Assembly (NCBI GenBank): GCA_000004985.1
Contig: GG738886.1
Origin: Naegleria gruberi
Lineage: Eukaryota
Strand: one strand, 5' to 3'
Length of the DNA stretch: 64,000 nt
Part shown: positions 1 through 13,101 of the stretch, piece after piece
Position numbering within the stretch: position 1 is the first letter of the stretch
Layout of the letters: every line of letters starts with the position of its first letter
Notes under the pieces: generated by a model
Database searches by the model: none
Told to the model about the DNA's origin: nothing
Seen by the model: only the letters and a program-made list of their open reading frames with translations
Translations under genes and position numbers: made by a program

Positions 1-1012
1 TATGTTTATTCAATGATTCCTTTTGATAGTCATCATAGAAGTCCATTACTTTACAAGCCTTGTGAGCAAAATAAACAAGTCCAAGTCTGGTTCCTGAAGT
101 AATAGGAGCAACTTGATGTTTATATTTGTTGCCTTTGAACAATAGCAAATCACCAGGTTTAACAAATACCTTACAATTTTGCTCTGGAAACTCCAAATAC
201 CCTTCTTTCTCATCATAATCTCCCAAGTAAAATAAAACACTAGGTGTAGCATCACGGGTGTCCTTGTGAGCATTCTTGATTCTATGTTTCTCTATCTGTG
301 GTTCTAAATAGTTAAAAGCAGTGGATGGATAAATACAATTATTCAAAATATGATATGGGTGTGGTAACGATGTCAAATAATTAATTGTTCTTGGAGAGAG
401 TATTTCCAATGCAGCAGTAATTGTTTCATCTAGCATTGGATTTACAATTCCAATTAAATATTCTCCCAACTGTGTCTTTAGATCTGATGTAATATAATTC
501 ATAGGCATGTTATTCTCCAAAACTCCACTGTATCCATGATTTTTCTTTCTTGCCTCTTGGATTTTTAATAAATTTTCATTAAATTCCTGAATAATATCCT
601 TTTTCAACACTCCCGGTAAGAAAGCAAGATCTATTTGACCATCTTTCGAAATAATAAAATGTGGACTTGTTATTTTAGTAAACCACTTTTCCGTGTTAAA
701 TATTAAATTACTATTACTATAATCAACATTAAATTTCCGTTTTAATTTCTTTAATAATCCTTTAAGTCTGGTTTTTTTATAAAGACCACCCTTTTCACCT
801 TTTTTCACAGTCAATGATTCCTGCAAATTCACCGACACGGGTCCTAAGGAATGCGTATCAGTTAAAAGGCTAGTAGATGGCTTTTGTCTTTTGTTATCAT
901 TTTTGTTGTTGTTATTGTTGTTCCTTCTTTTCGTTATTGTTGTTATTGATGTTGTTGTTCTTGATGTTTGTTGATGACATTTTTTATTGTTATTTCTTGT
1001 TGACCGTTCTTG
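1..1012 (-). CDS. TET/JBP-family 2OG-Fe(II) dioxygenase (NgTet1-like), 3' end beyond window, no in-frame ATG
   Basis: Uninterrupted minus-strand frame from 1012 down to 1. The translation ...TDTHSLGPVSVN...TEKWFTKITSPHFIISKDGQIDLAFLPGVL...HGYSGVLENNMPMNYITSDL...SPRTINYL...LNNCIYPSTAFNYL...AHKDTRDATPSVLFYLG...EGYLEF..NCKVFVKPGDLLLFKGNKYKHQVAPITSGTRLGLVYFAHK closely matches, from memory, Naegleria gruberi Tet1 (HxD...H...R..LVYFAHK catalytic signature). The ORF track missed it because the frame lacks a start codon. Confidence 0.85.
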
Positions 1013-3812
1013 TCAACGCAGCAAACGCTGCTGTTGTTCTTCTGACTTCAGACACAGCTTTCAATTTTCCTCTTGTTCTTTGCTGTTCTTCATCTACATG
1101 TTCAGCAGCAGTCTTGTTAGTTGGGATGGTGTTTACCTTGTTTGTGGAAATGTGGTATTCTTCTAAATCTGCTGGTACAACAACAGTTCCTTGACAACAT
1201 TGGTGTGGTTGGAAAAGTCTTGTATCTGCTTCTCTCTCGCATAGCTGTTGAAGAATAACTTCATCATTATTCAATTTTACAGTATAATCTTCCTTCAATT
1301 CTTCCAATCTCTTTTTCGTTAACGACCGTGGATGTGGTAAAAGGAAGGTGTTTGGTAGTATTGTTGTTAACAAGAGTATTCTAAGTTTTCGTAGTATCAC
1401 TTGAGCAAGTAATTTCCCCTCCAATCCTAATGAAATGATGGTTCTCTCTTCAACAGGCTGAATACTAAAAACCTTCTTCAATAAATCTTTGTTTTCATCA
1501 ATACCAAAATCCATTCCACTTGGAAGAACAACACCATTGGAACTAAACATTTGTGAATAATCTTTGGTGTTCGAAAATAAGGAATCATGGTAGGTGTGAA
1601 GATGACCACCACCTTTGCTAGAGCCGAAGTTAATCGTGTCCAATTCTTCAATATGACTACTCTCGAAAGCCTGTGTTTCGAAGAGTTTAACATGACCAAC
1701 TCGTTCTTTCAATGGGATGATATGTTTCACCAAAATGTGTGCATACCATGACTTTCCAGGAAATCCTTGTACAGTAGTGATATATAATTTCCAGAATTTT
1801 GAAAGAGAATCGGAAAGAACATCCATTGGCTTATCATAATCAATGTTGTGAAATACCTGTTTCAAACTATGCCATAAATCCTTTGTTTTCTCAGATTCAA
1901 AGAATGGAGCCATTACATTAATGTTTTCTAAAAGAGTATTACAAGTATTGCCATGCAAAAATATTCTCACTTCGTTCCAATCCTCATCCTCCACCTTATT
2001 AATATATTCTAAACCCTTAATTTTTGTAACGGCAGTCCAAAATTTCTCCTTTTCTTTCATTCCACTCAAAGTAATTCTTAGTATATTTTCGCATAATCTT
2101 TCCTTTGCATGAAGTACACAAATAATAATATTACTCGCTGGTAATCCCAATATACATCCAAGCTCTGTTAGTGTTCGTGGTCTGTGATGTTTGGTGCAAA
2201 TTGGGAATGTGATATTACAAAATGGACACCAACTATCCTGTTTAACTCCAGGACAAACTTCACCGAGAGCTTTCAAGTCCATCGTAAGGAAAACATCTAC
2301 ACTGCAATGATACGATCCAATAGTAATACCATTCTTTCTTATAATCTCAATCTCCTTTTTAAAATGCTCAGCTACATGTTTGATTTCTCCTTCATCTCCC
2401 TTCCAAATGGCCAGTGGTGCACATACAGCTCTGGACTGACCGGTTCCAAAACATTTACTGTTAATAACAGTAATATATATCGTTGTCAATTTAGAATTTG
2501 CTGCATAATCCAAATTCAATGCAACAATTAAATCTTTTGTTTCCTTTTTGTCTTGTTCACATAAAGGCCGTCCCTTATCTTTCATCCAACCAATCCACTT
2601 CTTATGTTGCAGAGCGTAACAACATAGTGTTGGGAAAATTGAATGGTATATTAATTTACCCTCTCCTTCTAATGTCAACACTTTCAAATTGAAAAAGTCT
2701 GAACAAAGCAAATCAGTTGATGACTGAGCATGTTGAAGAATACTTGATGAAGAGAGATCATTAACATTTCCTTCATTTCTAAACATGTCAACTGTTTTGT
2801 TGGAAACCTGTTGTCTATTCTTCACCACCACTTGCTTAAGGATTGTTGTATTAATTGTTGAGCTATATGTAGGTTTTCTTTTCTTCTTTTTGGGTGTTTC
2901 TTTTCCAGATTGTTGTACCTTTTCTATTTTTCTTTTTTGAGATTCTTCCCATTGTTTTCCCTTGATTTTTGAAATTTCTACTCTCTCATTCTCAAACACC
3001 TTGTCAGTGGAAGTGGTTTTTTTGGTTTGATGGGATGTTTCTTGTTTCGAAATAAATCCCTCTTCATGTAATCTCTTTTTATCCAATAGATCATTCCTTA
3101 GAAGGATTCCAAGAAATGAATAAATGTTAGTAAACCCCTCCATCTTTGCTAATAAATCATGACCACCTAATCTCATCAATAATCTTTCACCTTTTTTGTT
3201 TTTGGAAGTTATTTTCGAATAATCACTTTTCTTGTACTTGAATGAATTTGTTAAAATGTTGTCCTTCATCATGGTCAACCCAAAATGGTCCTTAATATCC
3301 ATATAATACCTCAAACCATCTGGTTCCATGTATGTCTTATCGCTGGTAGATCCTTTTCCAATGATGTTTTCAATTGGTTTGGAATTTTTAGAATAATATT
3401 GATTTATTATTCTTGTGTTCCATTGGTCAACCATATTTGGAGAGACAATATTTTCTTGGCCTGAATTTGAGGTAGATGATATTGGAATGGTTTGAGATGG
3501 AGGAGGGTAAGAAAACATTGTTTGTGCAACAGTATGTGAAGTAGTTGATGGTTGTGAGTGGAATGAATTTTGATGAAACATGGGCGGAAATTGTGTTGAG
3601 TATGGAAAGATTGTTTGGGGAGGAAATGTTGGCGTATTGTAGTTAAAATAGGGATTGTGAAAGGGATTTATAAATGATTGGTCTTGTGATGGTTGTGGCT
3701 GTGATTCGATAATTGGTGTTTGTGACGAATATGTTGTGCTAATGTTATCCAGGTCCAATACAGAAGTCCAACCACTCTCCGATTGACAATCATCATGATG
3801 GCAATATGTCAT
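990..3812 (-). CDS. 940-aa protein with RAG1/Transib-like RNase-H/zinc signature (candidate transposase-derived), low-complexity N-terminus
   Basis: ATG at 3812, TAA at 990-992. The segment ...LIVALNLDYAANS...CFGTGQS...SYHCSVDVFLTMDLKALGEVCPGVKQDSWCPFCNITFPICTKHH resembles the RAG1 region around D708 (FRGTGYDEKLVREVEG...CTLCD; zinc ligands C727/C730): acidic residues on predicted strands, a D.K...EV motif, and C..C 17-20 residues after the Asp followed by HH. The family assignment is an inference. Confidence 0.5.
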   Translation of the reverse strand: MTYCHHDDCQSESGWTSVLDLDNISTTYSSQTPIIESQPQPSQDQSFINPFHNPYFNYNTPTFPPQTIFPYSTQFPPMFHQNSFHSQPSTTSHTVAQTMFSYPPPSQTIPISSTSNSGQENIVSPNMVDQWNTRIINQYYSKNSKPIENIIGKGSTSDKTYMEPDGLRYYMDIKDHFGLTMMKDNILTNSFKYKKSDYSKITSKNKKGERLLMRLGGHDLLAKMEGFTNIYSFLGILLRNDLLDKKRLHEEGFISKQETSHQTKKTTSTDKVFENERVEISKIKGKQWEESQKRKIEKVQQSGKETPKKKKRKPTYSSTINTTILKQVVVKNRQQVSNKTVDMFRNEGNVNDLSSSSILQHAQSSTDLLCSDFFNLKVLTLEGEGKLIYHSIFPTLCCYALQHKKWIGWMKDKGRPLCEQDKKETKDLIVALNLDYAANSKLTTIYITVINSKCFGTGQSRAVCAPLAIWKGDEGEIKHVAEHFKKEIEIIRKNGITIGSYHCSVDVFLTMDLKALGEVCPGVKQDSWCPFCNITFPICTKHHRPRTLTELGCILGLPASNIIICVLHAKERLCENILRITLSGMKEKEKFWTAVTKIKGLEYINKVEDEDWNEVRIFLHGNTCNTLLENINVMAPFFESEKTKDLWHSLKQVFHNIDYDKPMDVLSDSLSKFWKLYITTVQGFPGKSWYAHILVKHIIPLKERVGHVKLFETQAFESSHIEELDTINFGSSKGGGHLHTYHDSLFSNTKDYSQMFSSNGVVLPSGMDFGIDENKDLLKKVFSIQPVEERTIISLGLEGKLLAQVILRKLRILLLTTILPNTFLLPHPRSLTKKRLEELKEDYTVKLNNDEVILQQLCEREADTRLFQPHQCCQGTVVVPADLEEYHISTNKVNTIPTNKTAAEHVDEEQQRTRGKLKAVSEVRRTTAAFAALTRTVNKK

Positions 3813-3880
3813 TATGATATTTCTTTTTGAAATATTTGAAAAAACCGTTACAGAAATAATTTAATTAAATGTAAATTTTA

Positions 3881-4567
3881 TTAGAAGAAATGGAATTCAT
3901 CTTCATCATCGTACTTTATCTTCGTATCATAAGCAAAATGCATCGTGACTTCACCAGATTCAGTATCAAAAATAAAGGAAATGTTCTTCACTTGTAAAAG
4001 ATATTGGGTAACAATGTAGTTGTCCTCTATCTGGGTGGCACTAGTAATGACTTGTTGACCCCAGTTATCAAATATATCCAATACAGGAAGATGAGATGTA
4101 AATCTATATCCAATACAAGGAACCTTATACTTAATGCCATGTCTTGTAACTGTTCTATCAGAGTGGAAAAAGGTAGCACCTAACATGCTTTGAAACATGA
4201 CTTGAAATACACCAAGTTCAACAGAGCCACATCCAACGTAACTTCTTTTATCAATACCTCCCAACTTCAGCAATCTATTGATTTTCACTCGAGCACAATT
4301 AGCCAATACTTGGAATGATCTGGCAGCAAAATCTTTCTCACTTTCGCATAAATCGTCATATGTGGTGGAAAGAGGTTGGATTCTTGGTAACCCGTGTTCC
4401 ATGATGATGTCTTTGAAGTCATATGAAGAAGTTTCCTCCTTTCGTTGTTGTTGGATTTGGAGGTCTACATGGTTGTTTGTTGGTGAAGTAATTGGCACAT
4501 CAAACATATCGATATCACCTTCATCCAAGATGGTCTCAGTGATATATACTTGTTGTTGTGTATTCAT
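3881..4567 (-). CDS. hypothetical protein (228 aa)
   Basis: ATG-initiated intact ORF with a compact intergenic fit. It contains VGCGSVELGVFQVMF, which weakly recalls the hG[GS]...h[DE]h[DE]h nucleotidyltransferase motif with the acidic residues replaced. Confidence 0.5.
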   Translation of the reverse strand: MNTQQQVYITETILDEGDIDMFDVPITSPTNNHVDLQIQQQRKEETSSYDFKDIIMEHGLPRIQPLSTTYDDLCESEKDFAARSFQVLANCARVKINRLLKLGGIDKRSYVGCGSVELGVFQVMFQSMLGATFFHSDRTVTRHGIKYKVPCIGYRFTSHLPVLDIFDNWGQQVITSATQIEDNYIVTQYLLQVKNISFIFDTESGEVTMHFAYDTKIKYDDEDEFHFF

Positions 4568-5083
4568 TGTGTTTGTTGGTTTTTTTGTTGTTGTTGTTGG
4601 TAGGAGAGAGTGATAGGGTCGTTCATTTTATAGTCTTTTTTTTTGTAAGAAAAATCATCATTTTCTACCAGGCTTAGCTTGGCCAGGGCATTTTTAGCTT
4701 TGATGTAAATTTCTAGTGATTCATAATTTTGAACATTGAAAAGAGTTTATTATGTTGATAATTGCTCTGAATCCACTTACCTCTGAGGTGACATCTTACA
4801 TTGGAGCAAATTCTGCTGCGCTAGTTGAAAGAAGATGGAAGAAGCAGTTGCTACTGAAATAATGGAAAGAAATATTATTAAGGAATTGTTAATAATAGAT
4901 GAGGTTAACATCAACCATTCGAATACATAACATGAATTGCAAATAGAAGACAAATGGCTTCTAGGAGCACATAGAGAGAGCACTCCATAACATTTTAGGT
5001 TTTGAAAATTAAAGTTCAACATTGTTCGATTCTAATTAAAAAGTTGCAAACAATTTTACCTTTCAAATTATTCATAAAAAAAA

Positions 5084-5994
5084 ATGGGCAATAAACAATC
5101 TAACCATCATCATCACCAACAACAACAACAGTCTTCTTCCACGAGCACCTTCACACCAACAACTATTCCGGTTTCTAATGAAGAGGCCTACAGAAGAGAA
5201 ATGGAAATTTGTAGACAATACGAAATTGAAAGTAAGATGAGAGAAATGCATGAAGCCAAGTTTCATCAATATTCGGAAAATAAGGAGCCAGCATTGCAAA
5301 ATCTTCAATTGGTATTAATAATTGATCACTCTGGATCAATGGGTTCTTTTGGTAGGTTTTTTTTGTGAAATAATTTTTATTCTAATTGGAAACTGAACAA
5401 GATGAGGATGCAACAGGTCAAAATCGTTCCAAGGGCTTGGTTGATTCTAATCATTGGACACGTTATGATAATGTTATTCAAGCAGCTAAATATCTTTCTG
5501 AAAGTATATTTCAATATGATAAGGATGGAAAGGTACCACTTATTTTCTTTGATTCAAATGTTAGAGAAGTGATTGTTGACAGTATTCCAAGATTAGTTGC
5601 TGCATTTGAAAAAAATCAACCAAATTCAAGTACCAATTTATTAGGAGCTCTTGAATTAGCATTTAAAAATCATGTTAATGATCATGAAAATGTATTATTT
5701 ATTGTTTTCACAGATGGTAGTCCTAACGGAGGTCAAGAACCAAAAATCAAACAATTAATTCAAGACAAGTTGACCAAACCAGATCCTAATGGAAACAGAT
5801 TGAATATTTTATTTATTCGTCATGGTGATGATATCTCTGCAATTAATTTTTTGAAACATTTGGATGATTGTGAGGCAATTGGAAATAATGTTGACACCAA
5901 GTCAGATAATGCTATTTATGCTCTTGGACCAAAGAATTTAATTCTCAATTCTATATTTGAACATATGGATGCTGAATTTTTACAATATGTTTAA
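5084..5994 (+). CDS. N-myristoylation-motif vWA (copine-like, MIDAS DxSxS) protein, 2 exons
   Basis: The N-terminus MGNKQS is a myristoylation consensus. Exon 1 (5084..5351) ends ...LVLIIDHSGSMGSFG at a GTAGGT donor. A 50-nt intron (5352..5401) ends ..caag. Exon 2 (5402..5994) continues in frame as a vWA fold (TRYDNV...IVFTDGSPNGG). Confidence 0.7.
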
Positions 5995-6384
5995 AATAAA
6001 TTGATTACTTTCATGTTTTAACTAAGAATCTGAAAATTGAATAGCAACAATAAAAAATGATATAAACAGTTTCGAATAGATTTCCAATATTAGTGATCGA
6101 CCTTTACAATGATAAAAATACACAGGTCGTACCTTAACCTAGTCGTACCACTTGTCTCTTTGTAAACTCTCATCCAATATTCTGCTTCTTACTGATTTAC
6201 TAAACAAGACACAATACCACATTAATCCCATAATTGAAAATGGAACTCTATTTTCTCTGCTCCTCAAATTCATTTCCATTTCTTCAATTATTATTTATAA
6301 TTCAAGAAAAAAAAGTTTTTATATTCACTACTAACCCACAGAGAAAGGTTTTAAATTTCCAATTGTTTTTTATTGAGTGTGTTG

Positions 6385-6810
6385 ATGTCGAGATATGCTT
6401 TAAAGCCACCTGAAGGTGATTTTTCCTATAATAATAATATTAATCATCATCAACAAGTTCCTACACAAGGTGTTGCTGTAGCCTATGATCAACAACAATT
6501 TCCTTCCAATACAACCATGATGATGATGGCACACCAATATAATAATAATAATAATTACATGATGAATGCTTCTAATAATAATAGCATGGTAATTCAACCT
6601 CCTCCTCCATCTCAAGCCTATGTTCCTCAACAAGAACCCTACATTCCATCACATTATATTGTTGATGGTGTTTATGGTACTGGTGCTGGAGGCTCGGGTG
6701 GTGCTAATACTGCTACAATTATTCAATACTCCTATGATAATGGTAATAATAATGCTAAAGCTCATGATTGGAATACTAATCCTAATGGTGGTTGTTGTAC
6801 CATTTTGTAA
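6385..6810 (+). CDS. low-complexity Q/N-rich protein with C-terminal CaaX (CTIL) prenylation motif
   Basis: ATG at 6385. Asn/Gln/Met-rich. The ORF ends ...GGCCTIL followed by stop. Confidence 0.45.
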   Translation: MSRYALKPPEGDFSYNNNINHHQQVPTQGVAVAYDQQQFPSNTTMMMMAHQYNNNNNYMMNASNNNSMVIQPPPPSQAYVPQQEPYIPSHYIVDGVYGTGAGGSGGANTATIIQYSYDNGNNNAKAHDWNTNPNGGCCTIL

Positions 6811-6855
6811 TTAAGAATTTAAATAATTAGTATTTAATTATTTAATAGAAAAAAA

Positions 6856-7941
6856 ATGAATCATCATGATGATCATCGGAATGGCAATTATTCAACATTT
6901 TCAGGAGAATATGAAGTGAAAAAGGTTGTTAGGGAGAATCATAAACAAGATATTACTTTTATGAAAAGACATCCTGTATTGGAGTGTTTATTCTTTACTG
7001 CTAGTTCTCAAGGAAGACAAATTAATTTATATAATAATGATCACGATGGACATTTGGATTTGGTTTCTTATTATTTACATGATGATGATATTGGAGGTGT
7101 TTGTTGGTTAAATCATAATTTGGTTGGATTTTATGATATGAAAGGGAAGATTTATCATGCCTCTATAACTTATTCGAGAGTGGAAAGAATTTATGAGCCA
7201 TTAATTGATAGTAACATTACAGAAAATTCAGATTATATTAACTATATGTGCTCATCATTTCAATATTATCCCAATAGTCCAAATTATTACTTATTCACAA
7301 TATTAAATGAAAGTAAGAATGTACAGGTTTGGGATATCAATACTGATAGTTGTATTTGTAATATGAAAACAGATGATAATGCTCTATTTCACTTTGGTAT
7401 GCCTATTGCCTATAACAAGTTCATTATTATACAATCCAACGGAAGAGTTTTACTATTAAGTATTGAACAAGCTAATGTTACTATTGAACCAATTCTACTT
7501 TCCAATGATAATGAATTATATGATGCTATATTAGATAATGATGTGAAAGAAATTCATTTAATCCAACAAACTAACAAGGAAACAAATTTACTTATTCAAA
7601 CATCTTCATCCTTCATTCTATGCAATATTACATCTGAATATTCCAAGCTCACTCTCAAAACGATATCACATTTAGACTATTCATGTGAATGGGAGATTGA
7701 TATTGCTAAATTGGAAAATAACAAATTTACAATATTAATACCAAGTATCAAAGATATCAAACTAATTGAATTTAATACGAGACGCTTTGAGGAAAAACAC
7801 AAACTCAAACATAACAAGAAAGGTACAACTAATATCACTCATTCTCTTAATTTCAAGAATGGTTCCATAATAATTGCCATTAATAATTCCGATTCCAGCA
7901 TATTGAGGTTTGAAAGAATTGAAAATAATTCGGAACCATAA
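6856..7941 (+). CDS. hypothetical protein (361 aa)
   Basis: ATG-initiated long ORF in an A-rich start context. Confidence 0.55.
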   Translation: MNHHDDHRNGNYSTFSGEYEVKKVVRENHKQDITFMKRHPVLECLFFTASSQGRQINLYNNDHDGHLDLVSYYLHDDDIGGVCWLNHNLVGFYDMKGKIYHASITYSRVERIYEPLIDSNITENSDYINYMCSSFQYYPNSPNYYLFTILNESKNVQVWDINTDSCICNMKTDDNALFHFGMPIAYNKFIIIQSNGRVLLLSIEQANVTIEPILLSNDNELYDAILDNDVKEIHLIQQTNKETNLLIQTSSSFILCNITSEYSKLTLKTISHLDYSCEWEIDIAKLENNKFTILIPSIKDIKLIEFNTRRFEEKHKLKHNKKGTTNITHSLNFKNGSIIIAINNSDSSILRFERIENNSEP

Positions 7942-8187
7942 ATGAAGAAATAAATCTATCTTTACAAAGAGCTTTTTACATATTTTGACGAGAAGTAATG
8001 TACTGAAATACTGAGAATGATTGGCTTAGGATAACAGCATTCATTTATGAACAAGTCAGTTAGATATTATTTATCTTTGATTTCTTCCTTTTCAATTATT
8101 ATTTTAAGGTTTTTAATCTTCTGATTTCTTCTTCAAGTTCCATGATTCTCCTATTTTCTGCTTCAAGTTTCTTCGTTAATTCCTTAT

Positions 8188-8590
8188 TTAATTTTCGAGG
8201 TCATTATTTTCTTCAATTATTTGTGGAATATCTTTGAGGGGAGTAATTTCATTGTAACTTTCCATTTCCTTTTCAATTGATTCTATTGTTATTTTATCAG
8301 AGCCTTTAAGATAGAGAACAACTTTTGATATAATGGTCATGTGAGTGAAACAGTTCAATCTCTTTGAGGAATCTTTTTGAATCATGGTTATCAAACATTT
8401 AGTAAGAATATTATTCACTCCAAAAGATGGATCCACATATCGAACAATGGTTTTCTGAATTGCATGGTGTAATTTCTTCTCTCTTAATAAATCTGATAAA
8501 ACTGAATAGAAATAAAGTCCATAATAGTTAAAGTAGGAATAATTTCCATCATATTTACAAATAATATAAATATGATGGAAATTATTCCTA
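8188..8590 (-). CDS. hypothetical small protein, 5' end unresolved
   Basis: The frame is open from about 8590 to the stop at 8188 (...NYYGLYFYSVLSDLLREKKLHHAIQKTIVRYVDPSFGV...) with no ATG near its start, so an upstream exon or intron probably exists. Confidence 0.3.
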
Positions 8591-8714
8591 CCGGTACAGG
8601 TATCTATTTATTACATTCCTGAATATTTGAATCTTCCAAAAAGTTTCTATCAAGTTTCAATGAACAATTTGTCAATAATTTCAATAAAATACAGCCCAAT
8701 GAGAATATATCACA

Positions 8715-9338
8715 CTATGTTGAAATATTTCCAATATTATGTGCGAGCTTGTCACCATCCTTTAGTGATGCTTCTTCATAACTTTCGAATGAGACCTCAG
8801 GAGACATGTAATGATATTTTCCAACTGTCAAAGTTATGGAATTTCCACTTTTGACAACTTTTGCAATATCAAAATCAATAATTTTGTAATGATCTTTCAC
8901 CTTAACTATATTCTTTGGATCTAAATCTCTATGCAACACATTTTTATCTTCAAGTGATTTCACAGAAAACAATATTTTTGTATATAAATTCATTTTGATA
9001 AACATTCATATTTCTATCAATAATCTTGTACTGTCTCTTCTCCCATTTCCATAATTGAGTACATAACCATCTATGAGATTACAGTCATAACATTTGATTT
9101 TACCTTCAATATCATCTCTTTTAAGAAATTTAATTCTCTCCTGCGCAGAAATTTCATCTATTTTGTCAAATTTAACTTTAAATGCAACAAATTCATTCAA
9201 TATCTTACTGAAAGCTTTGAATGCAACCCCTTCTCCTCCGTGTCCCAGAAATAATTTCATATTGATTGTTAAAATACTTGTTGGAATAGTTTTGAAATTC
9301 TTTGAATATTTGAATGACTTTGGCAAGATCACCTCCAA
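8715..9338 (-). pseudogene. protein kinase-like gene interrupted by in-frame TGA with degenerate catalytic motifs
   Basis: Glycine loop LGHGGEGVAFKA and VAFK lysine sit in 9006..9338. HRDLDPKN (catalytic Lys replaced by Asp), DFD and SPE sit in 8715..9005. The two ORFs are in the same frame separated only by TGA, and no GT..AG intron is placeable around it. Confidence 0.5.
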
Positions 9339-9556
9339 TTTTGTTTCTACAAGAACTTGCTTACGGTTTTTCTACATTTTGATTTTTTAATCCAACAAGA
9401 AATAAACAATAACACTAACCCAATCCATTTGTATTGATGCCATTTTTTTGATGTTTTTAATCTAGTCTAAGAAAGGCGATTGGTTGACCATTCCTGTAAT
9501 TAACTTAATCAGATGTTTTACAATAAACTATTGACTTTGAACAAAGAGATTATTAT

Positions 9557-11635
9557 TTATTCATCATCCTCAATATCTTCGATTTCTTCTTCTGTTTCTG
9601 TTGTCTTTTCAAGAGTTATCTTTTTCTTCTTTGGTTCAATATCACAACCAATAGATTTCAGTACAATTGAAACTTGATCGTATTTGATATGTCTAGAAAT
9701 TGTAATATTTCCCTTAAAACCAATGACAACAATGTTGTCATGAGAATCTTCATCTTCGTCTTTAATCTTAACTAAAACACCACCTGGTTCCATTTGTGAA
9801 ATTTTTTCAGCTTCTTCCTTTTGACCATTTTCTTCGAAAATCTTTGGTGAAACTTGAGGTTCAACTAAGAATTTGATAAAGTTTTCACGATTCAATTCAA
9901 TTTTTCTGTGTGAGTTAGTATTATCCCAGAGTAATGTTGCAGCTTCTTGTGTCATTCTATAACGACATCTCAAAAATTGAGCCTTATTTCTAGCAAAAAC
10001 TCTAATACCACAGTTGATAATGTTAAATTGTTGGCCATCATTCATGTTATGTTCAACAAATTTACGAACGGATGGAGAAATATACATAACTTTTCTGACA
10101 CTGTCAAGTTCTGTGGCACTGTCAGTAGTTCTAAGACAAAATTGTTCATTCTTGAAGTTATCTCTATTAACACCATAAAAATCAAGAATTTTTTCAAGTT
10201 TTTCTGGTTCCATAGATTGAATAGTATCCTTTTGAATACCTCTTCCCTTGAATTGTTTGATTGTTTCTTCAGTATTTTCATTATATTCAGAAATTGGTTC
10301 ATCCAAATCGGCAACCTTCTTAAAGTGAGCAATATAGAAACCACCAGTATTATTTTGATTTGGTAAAATTCTCATAGTGTAATGCATATTCATATCCTTA
10401 ACATCATCTTTAGCAAATTCACTTTCAGTAATTCTGTTATCAGAGTTATATTTACGGGCATATTCGAAAGATGGTAATAATTCTCCTTTCTTTGAAGTAA
10501 CAACCCAATTTGTCATACCTGGCTTGTACTTTAATGATGGGTATCTAGAAGATAAATCTTGTAAAACAAGCTTTCCCTTTGTTCTTCTAATAATTTCAGC
10601 AACTACAGCTTCATCTTCAATAGGATTTAATGTACATGTACTATATACAATTTCACCTCCAACATTTAACATATCAAAAGCTCTCAAAACACAATCAACT
10701 TGTAATTTGTGAAGACCATGACCCATATTTGCCTTCCATTGTCTCCAAACTTGTGGTGATTTTCTGATGGTACCATCTCCACTACACATGATATCACAGA
10801 GAACCTTATCAAATTTGAGTTTTGGTTCAGTAGTAAATTGTGGATACTTTGTAGCATCATGATTTGTAATCATCAAATGTGGGAATAAAAAGTTCAATCT
10901 TTGAAGTTGGTGAACTAATAAATAAGCTCTTTTAACATCATTATCATTGGCAATAACAAATCCCGAAATGTTCTTTGAATCTCCTCCACTACTTTGATAG
11001 AGTAATTCCACAAGTTGTGATGTTTTAGAACCTGGAGCAGCACACATATCAAGAACCTTATCAGATGGTTTCCAATTTGTAAACATCAATGGTGGTAACA
11101 TACTGACAACTTCTTGTCTACAGAAATTACCCTTTTCAGTTTCTCTCATTAAAAAATTTCTAAATTCAGAAAATTCTGGCTGTTTTCTTAATAAATTCTT
11201 TGTAACATGGTCATGCATTTGCCACACAAGATCATCAGGAATAAATGGAACAGGTTTTAAAGAGGCATATTCTGGTTCTGTTTCAACCTTTGATGGTTCA
11301 TGAAGATATTGAGAAACTGCACTGTCATCAATTCTGATTTTAGAAATAGCTTCAGCAAAATTCCTAATCTTTTGTTTTAATTTTTCTTGACTAGATTTTG
11401 GAATTGATTGATTAATTCTGAAAGAAATTGGTAAAGTTTTTCTAAAAGCATCCACCATATCCTTTAATTCCTCTTGTGAGTCAACAACTCTTTGTTGATC
11501 GAAATAATATTGTTCAAAAATTTTGTTTGTTTTTAAATCACCCTTTCTGGTCTTTTCCGGAACCCAAACATTCTTTGATTCTGTTGTTGTTGAAGATGAT
11601 GATGTTTCAGTAGTGGTAGTCGGTTGTTGGCTCAT
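9557..11635 (-). CDS. NSUN2: tRNA (cytosine-5)-methyltransferase, NOL1/NOP2/Sun family (NSUN2/Trm4-like)
   Basis: Contains DMCAAPGSKT (SAM-binding motif), DKVLCDIMCSGDGTIRK (motif IV Cys) and IVYSTCTLNPIEDEAVV (motif VI Cys), 692 aa. Confidence 0.85.
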   Translation of the reverse strand: MSQQPTTTTETSSSSTTTESKNVWVPEKTRKGDLKTNKIFEQYYFDQQRVVDSQEELKDMVDAFRKTLPISFRINQSIPKSSQEKLKQKIRNFAEAISKIRIDDSAVSQYLHEPSKVETEPEYASLKPVPFIPDDLVWQMHDHVTKNLLRKQPEFSEFRNFLMRETEKGNFCRQEVVSMLPPLMFTNWKPSDKVLDMCAAPGSKTSQLVELLYQSSGGDSKNISGFVIANDNDVKRAYLLVHQLQRLNFLFPHLMITNHDATKYPQFTTEPKLKFDKVLCDIMCSGDGTIRKSPQVWRQWKANMGHGLHKLQVDCVLRAFDMLNVGGEIVYSTCTLNPIEDEAVVAEIIRRTKGKLVLQDLSSRYPSLKYKPGMTNWVVTSKKGELLPSFEYARKYNSDNRITESEFAKDDVKDMNMHYTMRILPNQNNTGGFYIAHFKKVADLDEPISEYNENTEETIKQFKGRGIQKDTIQSMEPEKLEKILDFYGVNRDNFKNEQFCLRTTDSATELDSVRKVMYISPSVRKFVEHNMNDGQQFNIINCGIRVFARNKAQFLRCRYRMTQEAATLLWDNTNSHRKIELNRENFIKFLVEPQVSPKIFEENGQKEEAEKISQMEPGGVLVKIKDEDEDSHDNIVVIGFKGNITISRHIKYDQVSIVLKSIGCDIEPKKKKITLEKTTETEEEIEDIEDDE

Positions 11636-11759
11636 TTTTTTTCTTCAAGTATCATTTTGAAATTGCACCATCTTCATCACACCTCTTCGGAACGAATAAT
11701 AACAATAATAAATAAATAAAATTCATCATCAAATAATAATCATGATGAAGAATTTAAAA

Positions 11760-12110
11760 AGAGAATGCCATGCAACCCTCGCCAGTAGTCTGAATTGTGT
11801 TACAGCCCAGTGAGCTGTGTTGTACATCTAACTAAACTTTTGCGGTGTCATCCCAGCCGTTTCAATTGAGAGTTTCCTCCCAAGCCCATTTCTGGTTCTG
11901 GGATATTAGCATTATTGATTTACCAACCTCACTTCTCGTGAGTAAACAACACCTCAGACCTTCCCAGGAGTTATGGTTAATGTGAGTGTTCTTACTTGTT
12001 TAAAGTAATCTCGTATGTATTCTCCTCAATACGTCCAAGCTCAAGATGCAAGCAGACCCCGAAGATTAAATGTAATTTGCATCCTTGTGAAAGATTGGAT
12101 ATTTTTTAGG
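11760..12110. other. GC-elevated ORF-free island (candidate ncRNA gene or regulatory element)
   Basis: About 45% GC against roughly 30% around it, with no ORF in any frame. It contains gctcaagatgcaagcagacc, which matches 17 of 20 positions with a motif in the 21850-22500 island. Confidence 0.25.
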
Positions 12111-12188
12111 AGGTAAGATTTATGGTTTCAAAAAAGAGTTTTCTATATTTTACATAATTCAATTTCACTCAACTATTATTCAAGTTAA

Positions 12189-13101
12189 TTACCAGACATT
12201 CTCACCAGATAGATCGAGTGTGATTGGCTTGTCAAAAACTTCGAGGAAATCTGATAATTGGAAACAATGTTCACATTCGTTTGATATTTCTTTAAGGAGA
12301 GATTCTCTTGGAATAATCTGAGGAAAATCTTGATTAAGACTGTCAAGGAAAAGTGACATTTGTCTGATACCAAGACCCATTACCTTCTTACCAAGAGTCA
12401 CTAATTGTGTGACCATTTCCTGTATTTTAAAAATCCAAATTAATCCTGCTTTTTCTTCTTCCTTTGAGAGTGGATTTCCATTTGTAAAATCATCGTCATC
12501 GGTTTCAGCTGGATGGCCTGTTGGTATATCTCTACAGGTCCATCTAGGGAAACTCAGTGAACCTGAATCATCAGTGTACAGTAATATTTTGACAGATAAT
12601 ATTTTGTAATCAAATTCCTTCAAAAATTCATCATCCTTCTTTGCTCTGTGTAGAACCCTCAGAAAATCCAAGGTGCAATCCTTTGTTCCTTCCAAGAAAT
12701 GTACATAATATTCCTGTCCTTCAAATAATATTCCGTAAAAATCGTCTTCCTTACGTCCAGTTTTATGAAATAAAGCCATATGATATTCTATCATTAATTA
12801 ATCATCCCTATTATCCAGGTTCCCAAAACTTACGTTCGGTAAGACTTCCATTTGTTGTATCTTCTTGATGTTTCTTTGCTACATACAACAATCTGGAATG
12901 TGTCTTTTGGTCCTGTAAATTATTGTGTCTTGCCATAATAACATCCAACAATGAGGATCTTGCTGTTTGAGCAACCTCACTCATCGTTTCCTTTTGGTTG
13001 GCACTTGTTGAAATATTATTTGCGTTGTTTTTTGTTGGCACTGGAGTGGCCTTTCCTATCGATGGGCTTATATTGATGAGACTACTGTTATTGCTGTTCA
13101 T
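12189..13101 (-). CDS. hypothetical protein, 2 exons (about 288 aa)
   Basis: Exon 1 (13101..12834) ends at a GTAAGT donor. A 46-nt intron (12788..12833) ends ..gatag. Exon 2 (12787..12189) continues in frame. Confidence 0.55.

Follow-up and report, generated by a model that had tools for sequence, protein, structure and literature searches.

What is the 940-codon open reading frame (ORF) that adjoins a Tet dioxygenase gene at one end of a 64,000-nucleotide stretch of Naegleria gruberi DNA (assembly GCA_000004985.1, contig GG738886.1; the whole stretch is called the window here), and does it belong to a mobile element? Analyses of this frame (ORF940), of the small gene beside it (ORF228), and of related loci make it very probable that the window holds, from position 4718 down to 990 or farther and probably beyond position 1, a copy of a CACTA-type cut-and-paste transposon of the Heterolobosea, with ORF940 as its transposase.

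A first-pass annotation, made from the letters of the window, had described ORF940 as a transposase-derived protein with a RAG1/Transib-like DDE and CxxC..HH signature, and this description proved largely right. The frame lies where it was placed, on the minus strand at 990-3812, with an ATG start and 940 amino acids, and the strings quoted for it are all found in its translation (LDYAAN at amino acid 434, GTG at 456, SVDVFLTMDLKALGEV at 504, CPFC at 529, and HH at 542). We judged conservation in a core alignment of 28 sequences that are 17 to 66% identical to the window protein; seven positions are invariant (D512, C529, H568, Y690, H692, H697, and E717) and five nearly invariant (D435, E474, C532, C565, and R572), which gives the family pattern D...E...D-x16-CxxC...Hx4H-x19-E. 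The proposed spacing of about 17 to 20 residues between the Asp and the CxxC was confirmed (17 from D512 to C529), and the D...CxxC part of the signature is conserved across the 28 members; the HH pair at 542-543, by contrast, varies even among the closest homologues, and the real zinc-type pair is H692-x4-H697, which the first-pass annotation had missed along with the catalytic E717. The GTG is present, with conservation confined to the Naegleria subgroup. The predicted features of the gene are as follows.

990 to 3812, minus strand: ORF940, predicted DDE transposase of 940 amino acids with a RAG1/Transib-like catalytic core
1443 to 2705, minus strand: catalytic core (amino acids 370-790), an RNase-H-like domain with a zinc-binding insertion
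2508 to 2510, minus strand: codon of D435 (LNLD), the first catalytic Asp, which the model puts on strand 1 of the RNase-H-like sheet
2391 to 2393, minus strand: codon of E474, acidic and conserved, where helix alpha-1 begins
2277 to 2279, minus strand: codon of D512 (MDLKAL), the second catalytic Asp, which the model puts where strand beta-4 ends
2217 to 2228, minus strand: C529-P-F-C532, the C(2)C zinc motif, 17 amino acids past D512
1722 to 1739, minus strand: H692-x4-H697, the H(4)H zinc motif (YAHILVKH)
1662 to 1664, minus strand: codon of E717, catalytic Glu (QAFESSH), 20 amino acids past H697

Both zinc motifs, C529-x2-C532 and H692-x4-H697, sit between D512 and E717 and are conserved throughout the family. 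A core of D435, D512, and E717 (with E474) that holds the C529/C532-H692/H697 insertion has the architecture of the CACTA/EnSpm, Mirage, Chapaev, Transib, and RAG1 enzymes. The combination of DDE, C(2)C, and H(3-4)H is common to EnSpm/CACTA, Mirage, Chapaev, Transib, Plavaka, ESTA, Lanisha, and RAG1, and C(2)C is a defining motif of the CMCT clade (Kojima 2025; PMC12730594).

Searches with the single sequence would suit a different account, in which a lineage-specific protein, neither a nuclease nor a transposase, has RAG1-like motifs by chance. ORF940 alone matched no Pfam family, including Transposase_21 (EnSpm) and RAG1, and in a phmmer search of the Protein Data Bank (PDB) it returned only noise, such as picornavirus VP1 on the low-complexity N terminus; a profile of four sequences likewise gave only noise against the PDB. 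The first AlphaFold (AF2) model, built from four sequences, had a predicted local distance difference test score (pLDDT) of 45, too poor to trust, and its top Foldseek match was already RAG1. Close homologues of ORF940 number three, one from N. lovaniensis (56% identity) and two on metagenomic contigs; a word-index search with the family alignment returned 3 proteins only, and a locus search with alignment A3 found none. An exhaustive hidden Markov model search with the four-sequence core profile recovered 89 remote relatives, 27 of them below 1e-10, and the named species in the family are N. gruberi, N. lovaniensis, N. fowleri, and Willaertia magna.

With the profile of 28 family sequences, the only matches among all PDB sequences were RAG1 and amphioxus RAG1L (E values of 2.5e-6 to 6e-5). 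The significant alignment pairs YxHxxxxH...QGxE with YFHKTLAH...EGNE of RAG1, placing H692/H697 opposite "YFHKTLAH" and E717 opposite the Glu of "EGNES"; we take the RAG1 residues concerned to be H937, H942, and E962. An N-terminal subalignment that pairs E474, D512, and the CxxC with "LADES," "GYDEK," and "CTLC" of RAG1 is not significant by itself and is only consistent with this result; the Glu of "LMLADES" opposite E474 is presumably E662. The Pfam RAG1 model (PF12940) matches 4 of the 28 members, with a best E value of 1.6e-7, the window protein not being one of them. Transposase_21 is matched weakly by a single relative (P0019; E values of 0.004 to 0.008, below the curated cutoff) and not by the window protein at an E value of ≤1, and the KDZ transposase and CxC Pfam models match neither the window protein nor the 28 relatives.

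The structural evidence agrees. An AlphaFold model made from the 28-sequence alignment reached a pLDDT of 84.8 and a predicted template modeling (TM) score of 0.84, and the top 32 Foldseek matches for it in the PDB are all RAG1 (E values of 1.7e-9 to 1e-5; TM scores of up to 0.61), followed by Hermes at an E value of >0.03. The modeled topology is beta-beta-beta-alpha-beta, D435 lying on the first strand and D512 following the fourth, and the model shows the RAG1-core fold of an RNase H domain with ZnC2/ZnH2 modules; the predicted core matches RAG1, Transib, and the P element. The RAG1-like core proposed in the first-pass annotation is thereby confirmed by both Foldseek and the family profile. 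In superposition with RAG1, the predicted ORF940 core fits better than the solved Transib structure does; this closer fit does not place ORF940 inside the RAG lineage, because the searched PDB contains no solved CACTA, Mirage, or Chapaev structure. Sequence profile and structure agree independently, and the multicopy context bounded by terminal inverted repeats (TIRs), described below, adds to them; we regard chance resemblance as refuted, its residual probability being close to nil.

Two remote family members carry an Ulp1 (Peptidase_C48) protease domain, P0018 at amino acids 1155-1250 and P0023 at its C terminus; fusion to an Ulp1 protease is known in other transposon families. A third, P0006, contains cadherin-like/Big_9 domains; its gene model is possibly chimeric.

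Is the gene mobile, or does it belong to a mobile family? At the N. gruberi locus, two noncoding features mark one end of the element.

4705 to 4718, minus strand: left TIR of the window element, CACTAGAAATTTAC, read from 4718 to 4705
4652 to 4665, minus strand: conserved subterminal motif GAAAATGATGATTT in the 5′ noncoding end, kept in N. gruberi, N. lovaniensis, N. fowleri, and metagenomic locus L003

The relatives compared with it are three N. lovaniensis loci (L001, L007, and L008), one locus of N. fowleri (L006), the metagenomic locus L003, and two distant paralogues from N. lovaniensis (L004) and W. magna (L005). In the alignment, homology among N. gruberi, N. lovaniensis, N. fowleri, and L003 begins exactly at the CACTA, and CACTAGAAATTTAC has a single exact match in the whole window. 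The subterminal motif is a putative protein-binding site. L001 is a unit of 4034 bp (8965-12998) with perfect 13-bp TIRs, CACTACAACTTAC at the left and GTAAGTTGTAGTG at the right; L007 and L008 are units of 4036 bp (4965-9000), with 100% identity between the two and 99.65% identity to L001. All three are bounded exactly by CACTACAACTTAC...GTAAGTTGTAGTG and stand among unrelated flanking genes. The unit at L003 measures 6326 bp (437-6762) with 13-bp TIRs CACTAGAGAGTAC, that at L004 4911 bp with a 12-bp TIR CACAACAATTTA, and that at L005 about 3.8 kb with the TIR CACTACAATTT, which begins with CAC at the left and has a one-base mismatch at the right. L001, L003, L004, L007, and L008 all have CAC...GTG termini, the left end in the window reads CACTAG, and the terminal matches of L001, L003, and L004 beat all 300 shuffles. 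Four N. lovaniensis genes on different contigs fall into the 90% cluster of the N. lovaniensis protein, together with N. fowleri genes at two loci. The CACTA-bounded relatives in N. lovaniensis are true transposons.

L001 also has a 12-bp subterminal inverted repeat, AAGAAAATGATG, at 9005-9016 and 12970-12981, by which the subterminal motif recurs in inverted orientation beside the right TIR. The spacing of this repeat is asymmetric (27 bp inside the left TIR and 4 bp inside the right TIR), and the left copy is conserved across species. At L003, outer inverted repeats of 17 bp and 12 bp (123-180 and 7666-7700) bracket the element and a neighboring zinc-ribbon gene, which could make this locus a nested or composite element.

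Several results weigh against reading the N. gruberi locus as a complete and mobile copy. Besides the missing Pfam match of the single sequence, the inverted partner of the left TIR is present nowhere in the window, so that the ends support neither the completeness of this copy nor the inclusion of the Tet gene; the right terminus expected on the gene strand is GTAAATTTCTAGTG, the inverted form of the left end, and an inverted-repeat scan of window positions 1-6000 gave no credible TIR pair. The right end either lies beyond position 1, with the Tet gene inside the element, or has been lost. There is no second copy of the element in the 64 kb, and the transposase gene of L003 has an in-frame stop at 3151-3153. 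Target site duplications (TSDs), for which lengths of 2 to 5 bp are expected, are lacking in five of the six bounded elements, including the identical copies L007 and L008. Of the marks of a transposon named in the first-pass annotation, then, the CACTA left end was found in the window and perfect TIRs in the relatives but no inverted partner in the window itself, further copies were found as near-identical multicopy elements in N. lovaniensis but not in the window, and 5-bp TSDs were not found at any of the six bounded relatives.

Scanning of TSD lengths from 1 to 10 bp found none at L001, L007, L003, and L004 and only 1 bp at L008; L005 is flanked by a 3-bp duplication, CTT. The TSDs of old insertions could have been mutated away, yet L007 and L008 are 100% identical copies. 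In all three N. lovaniensis insertions, GAATTGG or its reverse complement occurs at most 15 bp from a junction, and GG|AATT spans a junction of L004; a GAATTGG-like motif may be a target-site preference.

The lack of a second copy in 64 kb and of a partner TIR in the window would also be expected if ORF228 and ORF940 were a domesticated, immobile, transposase-derived host gene pair that cooperates with Tet, as in programmed cleavage of DNA or the targeting of chromatin. Both frames are intact, ORF940 retains all catalytic and zinc residues, and related copies are under purifying selection (omega, the ratio of nonsynonymous to synonymous divergence, of 0.16 to 0.26), although active transposases too are expected to be under such selection. 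Domestication is nevertheless very unlikely in our judgment: the closest relatives are multicopy, TIR bounded, and near identical and therefore recently mobile; N. gruberi still keeps the CACTA left terminus and the subterminal motif; and the gene context is not syntenic across N. gruberi, N. lovaniensis, and N. fowleri, whose flanking genes are unrelated.

N. lovaniensis L001 (8964-12646) and N. fowleri L006 (7432-10952) share 96 to 98% nucleotide identity in a block whose left boundary is exactly CACTACAAC, and 282 of 289 positions are identical in the 5′ noncoding region. Synonymous divergence (dS) between the copies of these two species is 0.015 to 0.047, with the omega values given above. 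Between N. fowleri and N. lovaniensis the element proteins share about 99% and 96% identity, but to those of N. gruberi only 56 to 67%, while GMP reductase, the only host calibrator, which is a poor one (highly conserved and a single data point), is 95% identical between the first two species and 89% identical to that of N. gruberi. With this one calibrator, the data suggest very recent common ancestry or activity of the N. fowleri and N. lovaniensis copies and possibly horizontal transfer. The N. fowleri copy lacks its 3′ end and has a deletion of about 100 bp and a frameshift. An apparent perfect 1.67-kb tandem duplication of the 5′ part of the element at L006 (5722-9071) is most likely a scaffolding artifact, because a run of 10 N at 7392-7401 separates its two copies.

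Further members were found at 36 loci (L009 to L044) on metagenome contigs from JGI and ENA. These have an H(4)H...E exon, the family members being split over several ORFs; many come from the same sample series, and neither Tet nor ORF228 is nearby. They suggest a multicopy, intron-bearing family whose host is some other eukaryote.

Does the element encode more than its transposase? Directly upstream from ORF940 lies a second gene.

3881 to 4567, minus strand: ORF228, a small element-encoded partner gene of 228 amino acids

A homologue of ORF228 with 49 to 67% identity stands directly upstream from the transposase gene in L001, L002, L003, L006, L007, and L008, and a gene of 213 to 220 amino acids occupies the same position beside the distant paralogues in L004 and L005. 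These last two share 38% identity (E value of 1e-35); their alignment to the ORF228 profile is colinear but weak (hhalign E value of about 1e-3; probability of 16 to 19%). The two-gene module is kept in all heterolobosean loci examined. ORF228 matched nothing in Pfam or among PDB sequences; it always accompanies the transposase and may be an accessory or DNA-binding partner of it. Both ORF228 and ORF940 are absent from the N. gruberi protein collection (by exact look-up, and with no N. gruberi protein in the homologue search), so ORF940 is unannotated; three other ORFs of the window are exact matches to the annotated proteins EFC41364.1, EFC41297.1, and EFC41293.1 of one 358,576-bp scaffold.

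The remaining question is whether the Tet gene belongs to the element.

2 to 988, minus strand: Tet/JBP dioxygenase gene, an NgTet paralogue and probable cargo, whose 3′ end runs off the window

As the first-pass annotation had proposed, a transposase-derived protein lies immediately 5′ of a Tet gene: the latter is directly downstream from ORF940 on the same strand, with about 10 bp from the transposase stop to an ATG, and its product matches NgTet1 (4lt5_A) with an E value of 1e-96. NgTet1 is a structural model for Tet enzymes. We lean toward the view that Tet is cargo of the N. gruberi element. At L003, a Tet gene (5709-6695), convergent with the transposase gene, lies inside the perfect 13-bp TIRs (437 and 6762) and is therefore cargo of that element. 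Between the window and L003, the divergence of Tet (48% identity) resembles that of the transposase (44%) and of ORF228 (59%), which fits coinheritance. No TAGTG terminus occurs between the transposase stop (990) and Tet, and there is no space before Tet for a 3′ subterminal region of about 270 bp such as that of N. lovaniensis.

Other observations would fit an ordinary host gene outside the element, beside which the transposon inserted, or next to which its 3′ end and right TIR were deleted, the adjacency being incidental; N. fowleri shows that 3′ truncation of such elements occurs. Tet is missing from all three complete N. lovaniensis elements, was not seen next to the 3′-truncated copy of N. 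fowleri, and is not near L002, L004, L005, or any of the 36 metagenomic relatives. Orientation also differs, Tet being on the same strand as the transposase in the window and convergent with it in L003, which indicates that its carriage is patchy. Finally, the Tet frame of the window has no in-frame ATG. These points speak against cargo status, but the position of the L003 gene within its TIRs, the similar divergence, and the lack of room for a 3′ end ahead of Tet speak against a host gene, which we consider possible but doubtful.

The start of the Tet frame was inspected in the interval 880-1020 of the window (minus strand). The ATG at 977-979 belongs to the transposase frame and meets a stop after 22 codons, whereas the Tet frame is +1 relative to that of ORF940 and is open through the ORF940 stop (AAG-AAA-TAA). 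An intron that would rescue the start was rejected, the interval having no GT. The lack of an ATG is most likely due to an assembly indel or a damaged 5′ end; a +1 frameshift fusing transposase and Tet is a distant prospect.

To which known group does the family belong? It resembles EnSpm/CACTA elements (maize En1/Spm, Tam1, and Tnr3) in its TIRs of 12 to 13 bp that start with CACTAC or CACTAG, and in having a second element-encoded protein. The TIRs of the plant elements are CACTACAAGAAAA in En1, CACTACAACAAAA in Tam1, and CACTAGAAGGGAT in Tnr3 (PMC3193017); that of Tam1 has 9 nucleotides in common with the N. lovaniensis TIR CACTACAACTTAC, and that of Tnr3 has 8 in common with the N. gruberi TIR CACTAGAAATTTAC. 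Taken strictly, EnSpm/CACTA is defined by TIRs of about 10 to 28 bp with a CACTA(C/G) start, which the family has; by the Transposase_21/Tnp2 model, which the window protein does not match; and by a 3-bp TSD, which was seen in one of the six elements. The Naegleria-family elements are also small (4.0 to 6.3 kb), with two separate, essentially intronless genes rather than alternative splice products, and ORF228 has no detectable similarity to any known family. For the broader CMCT clade, the DDE core, the C(2)C/H(4)H motifs, and 5′-CA...TG-3′ termini are all present, while the TSD of 2 to 5 bp is not.

The likeness to RAG1, ProtoRAG, and Transib extends to the fold, with 12 to 14% sequence identity to ORF940. 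Transib/RAG1 ends are RSS-like (recombination signal sequence), with a heptamer CACAGTG/CACAATG and a nonamer-like element, and a 5-bp TSD accompanies them. In the Naegleria family, by contrast, the termini are CACTACA/CACTAGA (CACAACA in L004), not an RSS-like heptamer/nonamer, and the 5-bp TSD is absent; the ORF228-type partner (about 220 amino acids) is too small for the six-bladed propeller of RAG2. We place the family in the CMCT clade as a divergent lineage that is CACTA-like and has a RAG1-like core, neither strict EnSpm nor Transib/RAG.

DNA transposons carrying TET/JBP genes were reportedly described in fungi by Iyer in 2014. The Naegleria elements are like the fungal TET/JBP transposons (KDZ and, of the CMCT clade, EnSpm, ESTA, and Plavaka) in that Tet lies inside the TIRs (L003) or adjoins the transposase gene (window), the transposase is of the same broad C(2)C/H(3-4)H clade, and carriage is likewise patchy. 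They differ in their host, a heterolobosean amoeboflagellate rather than a fungus, in their NgTet-type dioxygenase, and in a transposase lineage that matches none of the KDZ/Plavaka Pfam models. Fungal EnSpm elements can carry a TET gene (PMC12730594). TET-carrying transposons of the CMCT clade are thus already known in fungi; the CACTA-type family of Naegleria and its relatives is previously undescribed, and no report of a Tet-transposon link in Naegleria or the Heterolobosea was found in the literature searched.

By analogy with the CACTA, Mirage, Chapaev, Transib, and RAG1 enzymes, the N. gruberi copy may be catalytically active: after binding the CACTA termini, ORF940 would introduce nicks at the element ends, resolve the breaks, and insert the element that it has excised, presumably accompanied by ORF228 as an accessory or DNA-binding partner. 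Following the fungal precedent, Tet might oxidize 5-methylcytosine and so shield the element from silencing. A bolder proposal, which as a whole we think unlikely, is that these elements are a two-component, RAG1-like lineage of the Heterolobosea in which the transposase needs an ORF228-type partner as RAG1 needs RAG2, integrates without TSDs near a GAATTGG-like motif, and moves horizontally between Naegleria species, including N. fowleri, and that Tet was captured and spread as an antisilencing device behind part or all of the eight-member NgTet expansion.

The absence of ORF228 and ORF940 from the N. gruberi proteome means that current inventories of transposable elements and genes overlook this family. 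A deeply diverged relative of RAG1 with a constant small partner would offer a new outgroup for studies of how RAG-type enzymes and the subunits that assist them arose. Naegleria includes a lethal human pathogen, and the near identity of the N. fowleri and N. lovaniensis copies points to recent activity or horizontal transfer within this genus. For the Tet enzymes of Naegleria, the link to a mobile element leads to the hypothesis that they may be transposon cargo countering silencing by 5-methylcytosine; Tet cargo here would carry the association of TET genes with transposons beyond fungi.

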